Counted from the first letter of the stretch, positions 3,563-48,859 are shown. The stretch: 64,000 nucleotides of DNA from an uncultured Microbacterium sp. (GCF_947632095.1 NZ_CANROA010000003.1:11340-75339); one strand, 5' to 3'. Numbers and translations: made by a program. The notes: generated from the letters alone by a model not told the origin.

Positions 3563-4837
3563 ATGACCGATCCGTACTTCACCGCCCCGCTCTCCGAGGT
3601 CGACCCCGAGATCGCCGAGGTCCTCGACCGCGAGCTGAACCGTCAGCGCACGTTCCTCGAGATGATCGCCTCCGAGAACTTCGTTCCCGTCTCCGTGCTG
3701 CAGTCGCAGGGCTCCGTGCTCACGAACAAGTACGCCGAGGGCTACCCGGGCCGCCGCTACTACGGCGGCTGCGAAGAGGTCGACGTCGCCGAGTCCCTCG
3801 CCATCGAGCGGGTCAAGAGCCTGTTCGGCGCCGGCTTCGCCAACGTGCAGCCCCACTCCGGAGCATCCGCCAACGCCGCCGTCCTGCACGCCATCGCGCG
3901 CCCCGGCGACACGCTCCTCGGCCTCTCGCTCGACCACGGCGGCCACCTCACCCACGGAATGAAGATCAACTTCTCCGGCCGTCTCTACGACATCGTCGCC
4001 TATGGCGTCGACCCCGAGACCTCGCTCGTCGACATGGACGAGGTCCGTCGCCTCGCCCTCGAGCACAAGCCGAAGGTCATCATCGCCGGCTGGTCGGCGT
4101 ACCCGCGTCAGCTCGACTTCGCGAAGTTCCGCGAGATCGCCGACGAGGTCGGCGCCCTCCTCTGGGTCGACATGGCGCACTTCGCGGGCCTCGTCGCCGC
4201 GGGCCTGCACCCGAACCCCGTGCCGCATGCGCACGTCGTCTCCTCGACCGTGCACAAGACCATCGGCGGCCCCCGCTCGGGCTTCATCCTCTCCAACGAC
4301 GCCGACATCGCGAAGAAGATCAACTCGGCCGTCTTCCCGGGCCAGCAGGGCGGGCCCCTCATGCACGTGATCGCCGCGAAGGCGACCGCGTTCAAGATCG
4401 CCGCAACGCCCGAGTTCGCGGAGCGGCAGGAGCGCGTTCTGCGCGGCGCCTCGATCCTCGCCGACCGCCTCACCCAGCAGGACGTCGCGGACGCCGGCAT
4501 CACGGTGCGCTCGGGCGGCACCGACGTCCACCTCGTACTCGTCGACCTCCGTAACGCCGAGATCGACGGCAAGCAGGCAGAAGACCTGCTGCACGACATC
4601 CACATCACCGTCAACCGCAACGCGGTCCCCAACGACCCGCGTCCGCCGATGGTGACCTCGGGCCTGCGCATCGGCACCCCGGCGCTCGCCACCCGCGGAT
4701 TCGGCGATGCCGAGTTCACCGAGGTCGCCGATGTCATCGCCCTGGCGCTGCAGCCCGGTGCCGACGTCGAGGCGCTGCGCGCCCGTGTCGACGCGCTCGC
4801 CGCAGCGTTCCCGCTGTACCCCGAGCTGCAGCAGTAA
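3563..4837 (+). CDS. glyA: Serine hydroxymethyltransferase
   Basis: [50 protein letters not shown]-lysine motif; RBS AAAGAGG before ATG 3563. Confidence 0.98.
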
Positions 4838-17927: not shown

Positions 17928-19661
17928 TCAGCTGTTCACCCGGATGATCTCCTGCTGGTACGGGGCGATCACATCGCCGGAGATGCGCAGATCCAACAGC
18001 AGGAAGCGGCGTTGCGCCGGGTCCTCCGTACTCCAGGTGCCCAGGCGTTCGAGATCGGCGAGCGTGCGGACGACGACGCCCTCGGCGCCGACCGCCGCGG
18101 CGAGGGAGGCGAAATCGACCTCGGGGATGCGCATCGGCGCCTCGGCGAGGCCCTTGAGACCGTAGAGGTTCACCTCGGCGCCGTAGGCGGCGTCGTTCCA
18201 GATCACGGCGCAGCCGCGGCCGCGGGCTGTGCGCACCGCGGATTCGAGGTCGGCGATCGCCATCAGACCACCGCCATCACCGCTGGTGAGCACGATGGTC
18301 GAGTCGGGCTGTGCACGGCTCGCTCCCACGACGCTCGGCCAGCCGAGTCCGATCGCCTGGAACGCCGTGCCGACCATCATCACCCGATCGGGCGAGGCCA
18401 CCGGCCAGTACATGTTCGACCAGCCGAGGAAATGCCCGCCGTCGGAGACCACGTAGCGGTCGGCGGGCAGCAGCTCGCCGATGCGTCGGGCCGCCGAGCG
18501 GGGATCGAGACGGCCATCCGGGGCGAGGTCGTCGCCCGGCTCGTAGGTGCGCGCGGTCTCGATATCGACGCTCTCGCGCCACGCCGCGTGCATAACTCCG
18601 GAGGGACTGGCGGAAACCGGGGTCGCGGCATCCGAAAGCTGCGGGTTCTGCGGAAAATCTCCTGAGTTGTGCAAGGCGGAGGGCTGGGCGACCCGCTCCA
18701 CCAGTGCCTCCGCGACCAGCCGCGCGTCGCCGCGCACATAACCGCCCACATGCGGGTGGGTCGCGGCAGGGGCGACGTCGACCTGGAACACCGCGGTCCC
18801 CGGTGCGAACAGCTCGCCGAAGCGCATCGTGAACTGGTTCAGCGATGCTCCGAACACGACGGCCACATCGGCCTCGCGCACGGTGCTCATCGCCCCGTCG
18901 GCGCCGAACCCGCCCGTGACGCCGAGGTCGTAGGACGCGTTCGGGAAGATCCCTCGGCCCAGTGCGGTGGACGCGGTCAGCGCGCCCGTCGCCTCAGTCA
19001 GCTCTCCCAGCGCGGGCCCTGCACCGGCGAGCCACGCGCCGCGGCCGGCGAGCAGGAGCGGGCGCTGCGCCGAAGCGAGCGCTGCGGCGATCTCGTCGAG
19101 CATCCCCGACGCGAACTCGCCGTGAACGCCGAGCGGCTCGGGGGCGCGCGGGGCCGACACCGCAGGAACATCACCGGCGTCGACCGCGGCGACGTCGTAG
19201 GGGATTGCGAGCACCACGGGAAGGCGGTAGCTCAGCGCGTGCTCGATCGCGATGACGGTGGTCGCGGCGGCGTCCGTGCGCCCGACGGTGTAGGTTCGCG
19301 CCCCGACGGCCGAGGCGAGGGCGATCTGATCGACGTCCCAGGGGCGGGGCCCGGAGGTCGGCTCGTCGCCGACGATGAGCACGAGCGGTATGCGCGCCTG
19401 CACCGACTCGGCGAGGGCCGTGAGCGTGTTGGTGAAGCCGGCTCCGTAAGTGGCGGTTCCTGCGGCGATGCGGCCGGAGGCGCGGTAGTGGGCGTCGGCG
19501 GCGACGACGGCGCCCTGTTCGTGGCGCACCGCGGTGAAGGTCGCGGGGGTCTGACGTTCGAGGGCATCGAGGAAGTAGGCGTTGCCGTTGCCCATCACGC
19601 CGAAGACGGCGTCGATCTGCTGGGCGAGGGTGAGGGCGACGTGCGCGGAGACGGAGGGCAT
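17928..19661 (-). CDS. Thiamine-pyrophosphate-dependent enzyme (acetolactate synthase-like family)
   Basis: FGVMGNGN, VRHEQGA, GAGFTN, TPP motif SGDGGGLM...WND. Confidence 0.85.
   Translation of the reverse strand: MPSVSAHVALTLAQQIDAVFGVMGNGNAYFLDALERQTPATFTAVRHEQGAVVAADAHYRASGRIAAGTATYGAGFTNTLTALAESVQARIPLVLIVGDEPTSGPRPWDVDQIALASAVGARTYTVGRTDAAATTVIAIEHALSYRLPVVLAIPYDVAAVDAGDVPAVSAPRAPEPLGVHGEFASGMLDEIAAALASAQRPLLLAGRGAWLAGAGPALGELTEATGALTASTALGRGIFPNASYDLGVTGGFGADGAMSTVREADVAVVFGASLNQFTMRFGELFAPGTAVFQVDVAPAATHPHVGGYVRGDARLVAEALVERVAQPSALHNSGDFPQNPQLSDAATPVSASPSGVMHAAWRESVDIETARTYEPGDDLAPDGRLDPRSAARRIGELLPADRYVVSDGGHFLGWSNMYWPVASPDRVMMVGTAFQAIGLGWPSVVGASRAQPDSTIVLTSGDGGGLMAIADLESAVRTARGRGCAVIWNDAAYGAEVNLYGLKGLAEAPMRIPEVDFASLAAAVGAEGVVVRTLADLERLGTWSTEDPAQRRFLLLDLRISGDVIAPYQQEIIRVNS
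18589..18673. repeat. 85-bp palindromic element inserted in-frame in the TPP enzyme gene
   Basis: Terminal inverted repeats TGCATAACTCCGGAG / CTCCTGAGTTGTGCA (13/15); atypical codons; encodes about 28 aa (LHNSGDFPQNPQLSDAATPVSASPSGVM). Confidence 0.7.
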
Positions 19662-40136: not shown

Positions 40137-40733
40137 ATGTTGTACGAGCACCTCGGGGCTCGGCCCCGCATCCATGACACCGCCGTCATCGCGCCGACCG
40201 CCGTCCTCTCCGGCGACGTCGAGATCGGGCCGCACTGCCAGGTGCTGCACGGGGCGGTGATCACCGCCGAGGGCGGGCCGATCACACTGGGGGAGCACGT
40301 GATCGTCATGGAGAACGCGCTCATCCGGGCGACCGCGGCCGACTCGGTGCACATCGGATCGCACACACTCCTCGGCACCCTGGCGAGCATTGCCGGTGCG
40401 ACGATCGGCGAGGAGGTATTCCTCGCCTCGGGCGCGCGCGTGTTCAACGGTGCGCACATCGGCGCGCGCAGCGAGATTCGCGTGAACGCGATCGTGCAGC
40501 GTCGCGCAGCTCTGCCGGAGGGGACAGTCGTGCCGATCGGATGGGTGGCGACGGGCGATCCCGTGCAGCTCTACTCTCCGGACCGCGCCGACGAGATCGC
40601 CGCAGCGCAGCCGGAGCTCGACTTCCCCGGTCACGTGTTCGGCGTCGACCGGAACACCCCGGACCGCATGGTGCAGCTCACCGAGCGGTACGGAACATCG
40701 CTCGCGCGGCACGCCGACGACCAGCCCGTGTGA
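40137..40733 (+). CDS. Gamma carbonic anhydrase-like left-handed beta-helix protein
   Basis: PRIHDTAVIAPTAVLSGDVEIG and hexapeptide repeats. Confidence 0.8.
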   Translation: MLYEHLGARPRIHDTAVIAPTAVLSGDVEIGPHCQVLHGAVITAEGGPITLGEHVIVMENALIRATAADSVHIGSHTLLGTLASIAGATIGEEVFLASGARVFNGAHIGARSEIRVNAIVQRRAALPEGTVVPIGWVATGDPVQLYSPDRADEIAAAQPELDFPGHVFGVDRNTPDRMVQLTERYGTSLARHADDQPV

Positions 40734-40770: not shown

Positions 40771-40852
40771 GACACATGCCGGCGGAAAACACGAATGTCG
40801 ATCGAAACCCGAAGGTTTCGACCGACATTCGTGAAAACGACCGACAGGTGTC
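40771..40852. repeat. 82-bp palindromic element, copy 1
   Basis: GACAC...GTGTC termini; 20-bp inner stem CACGAATGTCGATCGAAACC / GGTTTCGACCGACATTCGTG (19/20); homologous to 48306-48387. Confidence 0.75.
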
Positions 40853-40885: not shown

Positions 40886-42271
<1,386 letters not shown>

Positions 42272-47018: not shown

Positions 47019-48302
47019 GTGGCTACTGTGAACCCGCCGCGCGGCATGCGCGACATCCTCCCCGCCGACAAGGCCCGCCGTGAGCGCGTCCTCTCTGTCA
47101 TCCGTCAGCGCTACCTCGCGCACGGCTTCGACGAGATCGAGACGCCCGTCGTCGAGGAATACGATCGCCTTCATGCCGGCATCGGCGGCGACAACGAGAA
47201 GCTCTCCTACAACGTGCTGCGCCGCGGGCTCGACGCCGACGGCATCCGTGCTGCGGCCGATGACCCGGCCGCCCTCAGCGACCTGGGCCTGCGCTACGAC
47301 CTGACGGTGCCGTTGTCGCGCTTCTACGCCTCGAACCGCGCGCAGCTGCCCGGCGTCTTCCGAGCCATCCAGATCGGACCGGTCTGGCGTGCCGAGCGCC
47401 CGCAGAAGGGGCGCTACCGCCAGTTCGTGCAGTGCGACATCGACATCATGGGCGACGAGTCCTCGCGCGCCGAGGCCGAGCTCATGGTGGCCTCCCTCGA
47501 CGCCCTCGACGCGCTCGGTCTGGGCGGGGCGACGGTGCGCATCAACGACCGCCGCATCCTCGACTGGATGCTGGATGCCTTCGGGTTCCCCGTCGACGAG
47601 CGCCCCGGCGTGCTCATCACGATCGACAAGCTCGACAAGATCGGCCCCGCCGGCGTCGCCGCAGAGCTGCGCGAGCGCGGTGCCGCGGCATCCGCCGTCG
47701 ACGCGTTCGAGGCGTTCCTCCTGCGCCCGCAGACGGATGATCTCGTCCCGTTCGGCGAGAAGCAGATCCGCGGTGCGCTGCCCGATGGTGCACCGGATGA
47801 GATCCTCGGCCACCTCGTCGGCATCGGAGATGCGGTTGCCGCAGGTTCCGGACGCACCGACATCCCGCTCGTCTTCGACCCGTTCCTCGTTCGCGGCATG
47901 GGCTACTACACCGGCACGATCTTCGAGCTCGCGCACCCCTCGGTGCCGTACTCGATCGGCGGCGGCGGACGCTACGACGGCATGATCGGGCGCTTCCTCG
48001 GCCAGCAGGTCCCCGCGGTCGGCTTCTCGCTCGGCTTCGAGCGCCTCGTCGATCTCGTCACCCTCGCCGAGGATGATGCCGCGCAGGCGATCGTGCTCGT
48101 TCACGACAAGGATGTGCCGGTCGCTGAGCTCGTCGCCCACAAGGCCGCGCTCATCGCGCAGGGGTCGCGCGTGCGCCTCGAGCAGCGCGTGAAGAACTTC
48201 AAGGCGCTGCTGGAGCGCTCCGCCGCCGACGGCTACACGGCGTTCGCGACGGTCTCGGCGGGAGCCGCGTCCGACAGCCTGGAGATCAAGCCGCTGAGCT
48301 GA
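47019..48302 (+). CDS. hisS: Histidine--tRNA ligase
   Basis: PPRGMRD, LRYDLTVP, RAERPQKGRYRQFVQCDIDI, RGMGYYTG, GGGGRYDGMIG...VGFSLGFER; short C-terminal anticodon domain. Confidence 0.82.
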   Translation: MATVNPPRGMRDILPADKARRERVLSVIRQRYLAHGFDEIETPVVEEYDRLHAGIGGDNEKLSYNVLRRGLDADGIRAAADDPAALSDLGLRYDLTVPLSRFYASNRAQLPGVFRAIQIGPVWRAERPQKGRYRQFVQCDIDIMGDESSRAEAELMVASLDALDALGLGGATVRINDRRILDWMLDAFGFPVDERPGVLITIDKLDKIGPAGVAAELRERGAAASAVDAFEAFLLRPQTDDLVPFGEKQIRGALPDGAPDEILGHLVGIGDAVAAGSGRTDIPLVFDPFLVRGMGYYTGTIFELAHPSVPYSIGGGGRYDGMIGRFLGQQVPAVGFSLGFERLVDLVTLAEDDAAQAIVLVHDKDVPVAELVAHKAALIAQGSRVRLEQRVKNFKALLERSAADGYTAFATVSAGAASDSLEIKPLS

Positions 48303-48305
48303 GCC

Positions 48306-48387
48306 GACACTCGTCAGTGATTCGTGACGGTTGCCGGTCGAAACAGCCTGTTTCGACCGGCAACCGTCATTTCGACTGACAAGTGTC
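48306..48387. repeat. 82-bp palindromic element, copy 2
   Basis: GACAC...GTGTC termini; 21-bp perfect inner stem TGACGGTTGCCGGTCGAAACA / TGTTTCGACCGGCAACCGTCA. Confidence 0.75.
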
Positions 48388-48859
48388 AGATGTCCCGAGC
48401 CTCGGTGACCCGCCTCTTCTCGCGGATGTAGACCTCCCGACGCACGCGGGCGACGACGTCGCCGGATGCATCGGTGATGACCGTCTCGAACCACTCCAGG
48501 ACCTTCGCCCCGCCGCGGGCCTTCTCGCGGATCTCGGCGACGCGCTCCGCCGGCACGGAGAACTCGGCGGTCAAAACGCCGCGGCCGGGCTTGATGAGAT
48601 CGATCTCGCCCTTGGTGTCCCAGACGACGTAGTCGCGGCCGAGCTGGTGCATGACGAGCATGAAGTAGTACGGGTCGGTCATCGCCGACATCGAGCCGCC
48701 GAACGCCGTCCCCACGTAGTTGCGGGTGAACAGGTTCACGTGCAGCTCGACGGTGGCGCGCGTCCAATCGTCGCTGAACCGGCGCACACGGATGCCGCTG
48801 AAGAGGTTCGGAGCCCACAGGCTCATGCCGATCGCGAGGCGGCGGGGAGTGATCTTCAT
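48386..48859 (-). CDS. DUF4442 / hot-dog fold thioesterase-like protein
   Basis: WAPNLFSGIRV, NYVGTAFGGSMSAMTDPYY, YVVWD. Confidence 0.8.
   Translation of the reverse strand: MKITPRRLAIGMSLWAPNLFSGIRVRRFSDDWTRATVELHVNLFTRNYVGTAFGGSMSAMTDPYYFMLVMHQLGRDYVVWDTKGEIDLIKPGRGVLTAEFSVPAERVAEIREKARGGAKVLEWFETVITDASGDVVARVRREVYIREKRRVTEARDI

Follow-up and report, generated by a model that had tools for sequence, protein, structure and literature searches.

A genus-specific family of dispersed palindromic elements in Microbacterium and its association with a wHTH-DUF559 nuclease gene

A 64,000-nucleotide stretch of DNA from an uncultured Microbacterium sp. (the window) carries two palindromes of identical length, each between convergent genes, raising the question of whether they belong to a wider repeat family and, if so, which enzyme could be its partner. 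To our knowledge, good understanding of dispersed palindromic repeats is limited to those accompanied by a RAYT transposase, and we know of no enzyme for CGTC-type REPs, for TRIT or for most actinobacterial repeats. Here, a repeat family is tied by genomic context and by coordinated sequence switching to a predicted DNA-binding nuclease of DUF559, a large and uncharacterised family. A preliminary description of the locus had offered a REP/MITE-like or structured-RNA family maintained by an enzyme encoded elsewhere; the REP-like palindromic family and a candidate enzyme elsewhere in the genome are retained below, whereas structured RNA and a RAYT/HUH partner are not.

Two palindromic elements between convergent genes

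Two covariance models were built, R1 from three copies (the third, on contig C43, found by an exact search for the core) and R2 from 23 copies. Copy 1 of the palindromic element (PE) occupies positions 40771-40852 of the window in the minus family orientation (R1 104.6 bits on the minus strand versus 61.2 on the plus strand; R2 91 versus 73.6 bits), and copy 2 occupies 48306-48387 in the plus family orientation (R1 106.1 bits on the plus strand versus 74 on the minus strand). Both are solo elements of 82 bp with GACAC and GTGTC termini, and their location between convergent genes, like their length and ends, agreed with the preliminary description. Copy 1 is faced by the 3′ ends of a hexapeptide-repeat transferase-like gene (40137-40733, plus strand; Pfam Hexapep) and a glutamate dehydrogenase-like gene (gdhA; 40886-42253, minus strand; named by sequence appearance). 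Copy 2 lies between a HisS-like gene (47019-48302, plus strand; tRNA-synt_His), whose stop codon is 3 nt ahead of the element, and a DUF4442 gene (48386-48859, minus strand; Pfam DUF4442). Copy 2 was identical in five contigs of the same strain, all of which carry it.

Alignment A2, its pair table and a 19-nt periodicity resolved copy 1 into an outer unit of the 19-nt type at 40771-40785 (box region GACACATGCCGG), which pairs with the inverted outer unit at 40838-40852 (CGACCGACAGGTGTC; box CCGACAGGTGTC), and an inner unit at 40790-40808 (CACGAATGTCGATCGAAAC), which pairs with the inverted inner unit at 40815-40833 (GTTTCGACCGACATTCGTG) around an apex loop placed by folding at 40809-40814. The corresponding parts of copy 2 are the outer unit at 48306-48319 (GACACTCGTCAGTG), the inner unit at 48325-48344 (TGACGGTTGCCGGTCGAAAC), the inverted inner unit at 48350-48369 (GTTTCGACCGGCAACCGTCA) and the inverted outer unit at 48373-48387 (CGACTGACAAGTGTC), the final two bases of which fall within the TGA stop of the DUF4442 gene.

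On either strand, both copies form long imperfect hairpins, with energies for the two strands of -49.4/-57.3 kcal/mol for copy 1 and -60.3/-65.6 kcal/mol for copy 2, and fold z-scores of -7.2 to -9.4 (-7.2/-7.6 for copy 1 and -9.4 for copy 2), no shuffled sequence among 200 being equally stable. The shared TCGAAAC...GTTTCGA core was recovered in both copies (ATCGAAAC-CCGAAG-GTTTCGAC in copy 1 and GTCGAAAC-AGCCT-GTTTCGAC in copy 2), the match of 29/38 between the right arms was reproduced exactly, and the inner stems differed in sequence between the copies with complementarity kept, as had been claimed. Best global alignment of copy 1 with inverted copy 2 gave 56/83 identity, and the resemblance between the two is far above chance.

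A Microbacterium family of four-unit palindromes

The source genome (G000; 2.50 Mb, 67.6% G+C, assembled in 107 contigs) contains approximately 12 R1 sites at E ≤ 5.5e-6, the best at ~1e-29, and the family predicted in the preliminary description therefore extends beyond the window; ten of the sites are solo, the window's two included. Among 24 congeners, R1 identified four family carriers (G003, G004, G008 and G024) and a single match in G002, and the 16 genomes from other families of the order gave one match, a plain hairpin, and no real element. R2 placed ~12 sites in the source genome, 25 in G003, 14 in G004, 16 in G008 and 13 in G024, with none in G007 or G015. An end pattern (GACACYTGTC-N45-75-GACARGTGTC) was also scanned in 185,579 species genomes, in which family-like matches came from Microbacterium records only; most matches were of the remaining kind, unrelated features containing GACAnnTGTC, in Pandoraea, Dokdonella/Lysobacterales and Thermoplasmata. 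These comprised three operator-like boxes (TGCGACAGGTGTCGCA) inside 73 bp in Pandoraea (L045, L067, L074 and others), a 95-bp MITE-like repeat, present in many copies, whose ends are CGACACCTGTCTGCG in Dokdonella/Lysobacterales (L044, L046, L048 and others), and arrays of ATGACAnnTGTCAT in Thermoplasmata (L071, L082, L096). Rfam held no matching family, the best sub-threshold hit being the generic hairpin mir-5592 (33.5 bits versus a gathering score of 82). The elements in the window are thus solo members of a Microbacterium-specific family of dispersed PEs of 82-100 bp. The suggestion that the family was undescribed also held up, as neither Rfam nor the literature searched contained it, with or without the bracketed nuclease gene described below.

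An ungapped genome-wide scan for long palindromes missed the PE family because of its bulges, and turned up a second, unrelated palindromic family, present in the window at 18589-18673 and on another contig of the source genome (C57:8440-8522), with ends GCRCAACTCMGGAG...CTCCKGAGTTGYGC. Similar GCRCAACTCC(T/G)GC palindromes fill the spacer between glmS and acpS in G016 and G002, and repeats related to this second family flank a small ORF of the source genome (C3:86366-87138) at what is the site of a DUF559 gene in relatives.

Within the PE family, compensatory changes were found in 19 of the 27 predicted pairs of alignment A2, and the mismatch cells of its pair table comprised 29 G:U/U:G against 25 A:C/C:A, a balance that gives no sign of selection on one RNA strand. 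Self-similarity of the arm peaked at an offset of 19 nt (45% identity versus 25% in shuffled sequence, z = 10.4). A PE is therefore made up of four 19-nt units: each arm contains two of them as direct repeats, and the two arms face each other in inverted orientation across a variable apex. A short box is identical across the four units of an element and across the elements of a genome, and varies among genomes, being TGTCGG in the source genome, TGTCGGG in G004, TGCAGG in G008 and G024, and TGCATGC in G003. Coordinated switching of this kind is not required by a hairpin and therefore points to a factor that is sequence-specific and varies from genome to genome. At a solo site common to G008 and G024, the apex stems differ by compensatory changes. 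The ends of the elements read CCGACAC...GTGTCGG, with no GTAG tag and with CGTC in two copies only. A T-rich run (TTTCG, TTTTCC or TTCTSG) follows the inner hairpin in 7 of 11 copies of the source genome and is not conserved across the family in alignment A2. The structured-RNA alternative of the preliminary description was not supported, given the absence of an Rfam match, the balanced mismatches and the 19-nt direct repeats, which are superfluous for a hairpin RNA.

Several other identities were considered for these sequences and set aside. A LexA-box reading of the TCGAAAC...GTTTCGA core fails as the core occurs in just 3 of 12 copies, with different apices elsewhere, and similarity to the PafBC/RecA-NDp motif (TGTCRGT) was dismissed on the change of box between species. 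An attC-like (integron) reading was put aside on two grounds, the units within an arm being direct rather than inverted and the bracketed genes belonging mostly to one family, and a resolvase res-site reading was speculative, with no recombinase nearby. The heptamer GGATGCC/GGCATCC was discounted as a driver of the family (3161 counts on both strands, ~5-fold over base composition and 1.16-fold over a maximal-order Markov expectation); many PEs contain it in their inner units, and it recurs in many terminator-like hairpins across the genus. In G003, PEs form BIME-like tandem dimers spaced 113-170 bp apart (C3:31045/31215, 125249/125362, 204737/204882 and 670999/671116).

All 12 sites of the source genome are intergenic and 4-70 bp from a stop codon, and are found in six convergent, five co-directional and one divergent context. 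In the relatives, for which contexts were taken from crude G+C3-based gene calls, the 38 classifiable sites divided into 17 convergent, 17 co-directional and 4 divergent. The pooled counts (23 convergent, 22 co-directional, 5 divergent) give a convergent to divergent ratio of 23:5 (two-sided binomial p ~9e-4, hand calculation), and PE sites favour gene 3′ ends. The source genome has four clear co-directional cases, and in each the family orientation is that of the upstream gene and a T-rich run follows the inner hairpin.

Presence and absence were compared at orthologous sites. The junction between the hexapeptide-repeat gene and gdhA is kept in G008, G007 and G014 (GdhA 88-90% identical), and the spacer, which measures 152 bp with copy 1 in the source genome, contains no PE in G008 (23 bp), G007 (0 bp) or G014 (76 bp), the last of which holds a different, simple hairpin; empty-site alleles, which the preliminary description had proposed looking for, therefore exist in three congeners. 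In the other direction, the source genome has spacers lacking a PE (C48 and C4) at the positions of two PE sites of G003. No target-site duplication was visible at 11 copies of the source genome, solo copies included. There was no PE downstream of the DUF4442 orthologue in 12 congeners, which is weak evidence since synteny is broken there. Two pairs of PEs were seen around other genes, one around a 174-aa DNA_alkylation-repair-like ORF in the source genome (C83:2992-3072 and 3667-3747) and one around an unrelated 288-aa ORF in G003 (326573/327639), so PEs can flank genes besides the nuclease gene.

A bracketed nuclease gene and its repeats across the genus

On a different contig from the window, a 277-aa ORF of the source genome (C11:17524-18356) lies between glmS and acpS and is bracketed by two nearly identical PEs ~1 kb apart (C11:17334-17430 and 18357-18455), both full length and in direct orientation. 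The preliminary description had proposed looking for copies beside PD-(D/E)xK nuclease or RAYT/HUH genes, and the former search was successful. The one PE of the source genome in a divergent spacer is that upstream of this gene. A duplicated block of ~100-115 bp at C11:17334-18455 runs from the PE into the final codons and stop of glmS, and resembles a duplicated target more than the clean end of an element.

Pfam assigned the C11 protein to DUF559 (29.3 bits, cut-off 20.6), MTES_1575 and AbiEi_4, PADLOC models matched an AbiEi-like N-terminus only, and a PDB sequence search and NCBIfam returned nothing useful. An AlphaFold2 model (pLDDT 80.7) was compared with known structures using Foldseek, for which the best match was the catalytic domain of I-Bth0305I (3r3p; TMt 0.71, rmsd 2.8 A over 96 columns), with further matches to a DUF559 structure (3hrl) and to AbiEi (6y8q). 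Residues D209, E219, D221 and H226 show no variation among eight subfamily members. From these domain matches and the predicted structure, the protein is assigned as an AbiEi-like winged helix-turn-helix (wHTH) domain joined to a PD-(D/E)xK nuclease of the Vsr/I-Bth0305I fold (DUF559). An invariant Cys/His cluster between positions 62 and 131 (C68, H88, W90, H98, C103, C105, H108 and C131), within which residues 91-114 were poorly modelled (pLDDT < 50), may form a metal-binding insert for DNA recognition.

The wider wHTH-DUF559 family is present in 1-9 copies in each of 25 Microbacterium genomes, and the gene of this subfamily is single-copy in the source genome. R2 was run over 30 wHTH-DUF559 loci, and matches were confined to the flanks of the closest homologues. 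PEs flank the gene on both sides at the glmS|acpS locus of the source genome, G024 and G003; paralogues in G004 and G008 at a second locus have PEs on both sides with weak R2 matches; and at a third locus (locus C) G004 has a PE upstream only, the same gene pair being separated by a 22-bp spacer in the source genome. None of 21 more distant paralogues that were fetched had this PE type. The bracketing PEs carry the box variant of their own genome, as its dispersed PEs do. The gene and its PEs are present at glmS|acpS in three genomes and absent in 18 congeners, in which glmS and acpS are adjacent with spacers of 4-360 bp, several containing palindromes of other types.

A test by local alignment of 330 bp upstream with 330 bp downstream, in which a locus was positive if it scored above all 200 random controls (maximum 18), detected flank-to-flank repeats at 20 of the 30 wHTH-DUF559 loci of the genus versus 1 of 266 controls (0/200 random, 0/31 acpS and DUF4442 genes of the same genomes, and 1/35 pseudo-genes). 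These repeats are long palindromes, their sequence type changing from one paralogue to the next, and in several each arm contains two direct boxes. One such second PE type, with the box TCTGCACAC, brackets the locus-B gene in G007 and G003; there are at least seven solo copies of this type in G003 and none in G007, though the gene with its two bracketing repeats is present there. Conversely, G008 has ~16 TGCAGG-type PEs with no cognate gene identified; a different type of PE occupies its glmS|acpS spacer. Genome context and matching box type show an association between the repeats and the nuclease, their candidate partner. The phyletic association is confounded by phylogeny because the carriers are close relatives, and in a class-wide sample the protein family was present in 7 of 61 genomes, with flank repeats at just 1 of 8 loci there. 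The glmS|acpS spacer itself is a hot spot, ranging from 4 to ~1350 bp in 24 Microbacterium genomes (L178-L201) with at least five palindrome types, for example GAGCCGCCCCTTTTG twice in G008 and CGCGAACCCT... twice in G013.

Transposases of the Y1/RAYT type do not track the PE family. PF01797 (Y1_Tnp) had no match in G003, G004, G008 or G024, and the sole Y1_Tnp gene of the source genome (IS200/IS605-type or RAYT-like; C15:20980-21342, 145 bits) has no PE or box nearby, so that the RAYT/HUH association raised in the preliminary description was not found. The only longer unit found with PE ends encodes the nuclease, not a transposase.

Proposed explanation and comparison with known systems

We propose that the PEs are the dispersed partner of the wHTH-DUF559 nuclease in a REPIN/RAYT-like arrangement, with box and protein co-evolving and the elements spreading by cut-and-repair, a reading to which we give a probability of roughly 55%. 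The model takes REPIN-RAYT and free-standing homing endonucleases as its analogues. The winged helix would recognise the boxes, of which a PE has up to four, the nuclease part would cut at or close to PEs, and host repair would then copy, homogenise or relocate PE sequence, with box and protein evolving as a pair. Insertions would survive chiefly at gene 3′ ends, where a long G+C-rich hairpin does no harm and may, as a secondary effect, stabilise transcripts or end them. Of the preliminary claim that an enzyme encoded elsewhere maintains the elements, the association was observed, and binding, cleavage and mobilisation of PEs by the nuclease are activities that the protein would have on this reading. 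A hydrolytic PD-(D/E)xK nuclease alone is incapable of strand transfer, and the route of solo PEs to new loci is therefore left unexplained by the model. The lack of target-site duplication, the PEs of G008 without a gene, the gene of G007 without solo copies, the PEs around unrelated genes and the flank repeats at only 1 of 8 homologous loci outside the genus also count against this reading. That Microbacterium has several orthogonal wHTH-DUF559/PE pairs, each propagated or homogenised by cut-and-repair, is a more tentative extension, which we consider somewhat less probable than not being so.

The same evidence was weighed against four other readings. One treats PEs as landing pads for a homing-type selfish wHTH-DUF559 gene, which would cut its cognate PE and be copied in by break repair, with solo PEs spreading by some other route. 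Two full PEs in direct orientation are what would be expected if a solo PE had provided homology on both sides, the duplicated block reaching the last glmS codons resembles a duplicated target more than cargo, solo PEs of other types occupy the glmS|acpS spacer in many congeners, making it a PE-rich target site, and the best structural match is a homing endonuclease. Efficient homing should, however, yield several gene copies, against the single copy per PE type observed beside 12-25 solo PEs, and the origin and homogeneity of the solo PEs are left unexplained, so we regard this reading as unlikely. Autoregulation would provide another role for the protein, as AbiEi antitoxins repress their own promoter via paired inverted repeats. 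The upstream PE would then be the operator of an AbiEi-like regulator and the dispersed copies immobile extra (decoy) sites, which accords with the fit of the N-terminal domain to AbiEi models and to structure 6y8q, with the upstream PE lying ~90-100 bp ahead of the start codon in several genomes, and with the operator-like appearance of the GACAnnTGTC arrays of Pandoraea and Thermoplasmata. This reading is very improbable, as it accounts neither for the second PE, which follows the stop codon, nor for the 12-25 solo copies at gene 3′ ends, their presence and absence at orthologous sites, or a retained nuclease domain with invariant catalytic residues.

Two readings remain. If PEs were lineage-specific terminators or RNA-stabilising hairpins, their adjacency to the nuclease gene being incidental and reflecting, for example, insulation of an inserted gene, then their 3′-end sites, enrichment between convergent genes and T-rich run after the inner hairpin (7/11 copies of the source genome; in its four clear co-directional cases, the orientation matches the upstream gene) would follow naturally, and TRIT, with 147 palindromic copies at gene ends in one genus, is a precedent (PMC3152330). 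Such a function has no need of 19-nt direct repeats or of a box that switches in all four units, the T-run is not conserved across the family, the balance of G:U and A:C mismatches (29 versus 25) gives no sign of RNA-strand selection, one PE occupies the divergent spacer upstream of the nuclease gene, and bracketing occurs at 20/30 loci versus 1/266 controls, making it an improbable account, though slightly less so than the operator reading. The PE hairpins also serve as a caution against annotating terminators without evidence. Least probable of all is mobilisation of the PEs, as ordinary MITEs or REPs, by a conventional DDE or Y1/RAYT transposase acting in trans from elsewhere: palindromic ends, patchy distribution, subfamilies of similar copies and the one Y1_Tnp gene of the source genome are in keeping with it, but the four other carriers lack Y1_Tnp, whose copy in the source genome is not beside PEs, there is no target-site duplication, and the box motif occurs within PEs only, so that no longer element with PE-arm ends was found in the 107-contig assembly.

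If the partnership between PEs and the wHTH-DUF559 nuclease is functional, it would account for the homogeneity of the repeats within genomes and their divergence between genomes, would assign DUF559 proteins a role, and would provide naturally orthogonal protein/DNA-site pairs (TGTCGG, TGCAGG, TGCATGC, TCTGCAC and others). If the orthogonal-pair extension is also true, the result would be a symbiosis of the REPIN-RAYT kind in which a hydrolytic Vsr-fold nuclease takes the place of the transposase, and would suggest a function for the very widespread DUF559 family and for orphan palindromic repeats of Actinobacteria.

Several binding sites per end are a feature of Tc1-like IR/DR ends and of the multi-site ends of Tn7, Mu and IS21. 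PEs resemble multi-site MITEs and Tc1-like ends in having two direct, protein-binding-like units per inverted arm, and differ in that neither a DDE transposase partner nor target-site duplication nor any internal sequence past the apex was found; inverted ends are present trivially, the element being a palindrome. The likeness to I-Bth0305I lies in the predicted nuclease fold (Foldseek match to 3r3p) and in a selfish-gene-like insertion between housekeeping genes, and Vsr, DUF559 and 3r3p have been placed in one PD-(D/E)xK group (PMC3424549). I-Bth0305I is encoded by a group I intron and has a unique gene target, whereas the C11 gene is free-standing, has an AbiEi-like wHTH domain and is paired with a multi-copy palindromic repeat. 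No repeat partnership was described in the DUF559 literature searched; the reported enrichment of DUF559 among predicted inversion targets (PMC9881135) fits with genes lying between inverted repeats.

The nearest actinobacterial analogue is TRIT of Mycobacterium, of which 147 conserved palindromic copies occur at gene ends in one genus (PMC3152330). Both are actinobacterial, genus-restricted, conserved in sequence and structure, palindromic and hence bidirectional, and located at or overlapping stop codons (PMC3152330); they are unrelated in sequence, and TRIT has 147 copies and no reported partner gene. Term-seq in M. tuberculosis showed little overlap between TRIT predictions and mapped 3′ ends (bioRxiv 10.1101/2022.06.01.494293).

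The nearest system overall is REPIN/RAYT. REPs are imperfect palindromes of 20-40 bp that carry an unpaired tag (GTAG or CGTC) at one end, and two of them in inverted orientation form a REPIN (PMC3733652); three reports describe extragenic palindromes at gene 3′ ends with a single-copy RAYT bracketed by matching repeats (PMC3116915, PMC3337134, PMC2817692). The PE family differs in the arms of its elements, which comprise two 19-nt direct repeats where REPs are self-folding hairpins with a tag, in its copy number (12-25 PEs versus hundreds of REPs) and host (an actinobacterium versus Proteobacteria), and in its enzyme, predicted to be an AbiEi-like wHTH domain with a Vsr-fold PD-(D/E)xK nuclease where RAYT is an HUH Y1 transposase. 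The two systems share multi-copy extragenic long hairpins made of two inverted halves, biased to gene 3′ ends and occurring singly or in tandem clusters, together with a single-copy enzyme gene lying between the same repeats and repeat variants that are specific to the genome and its enzyme.
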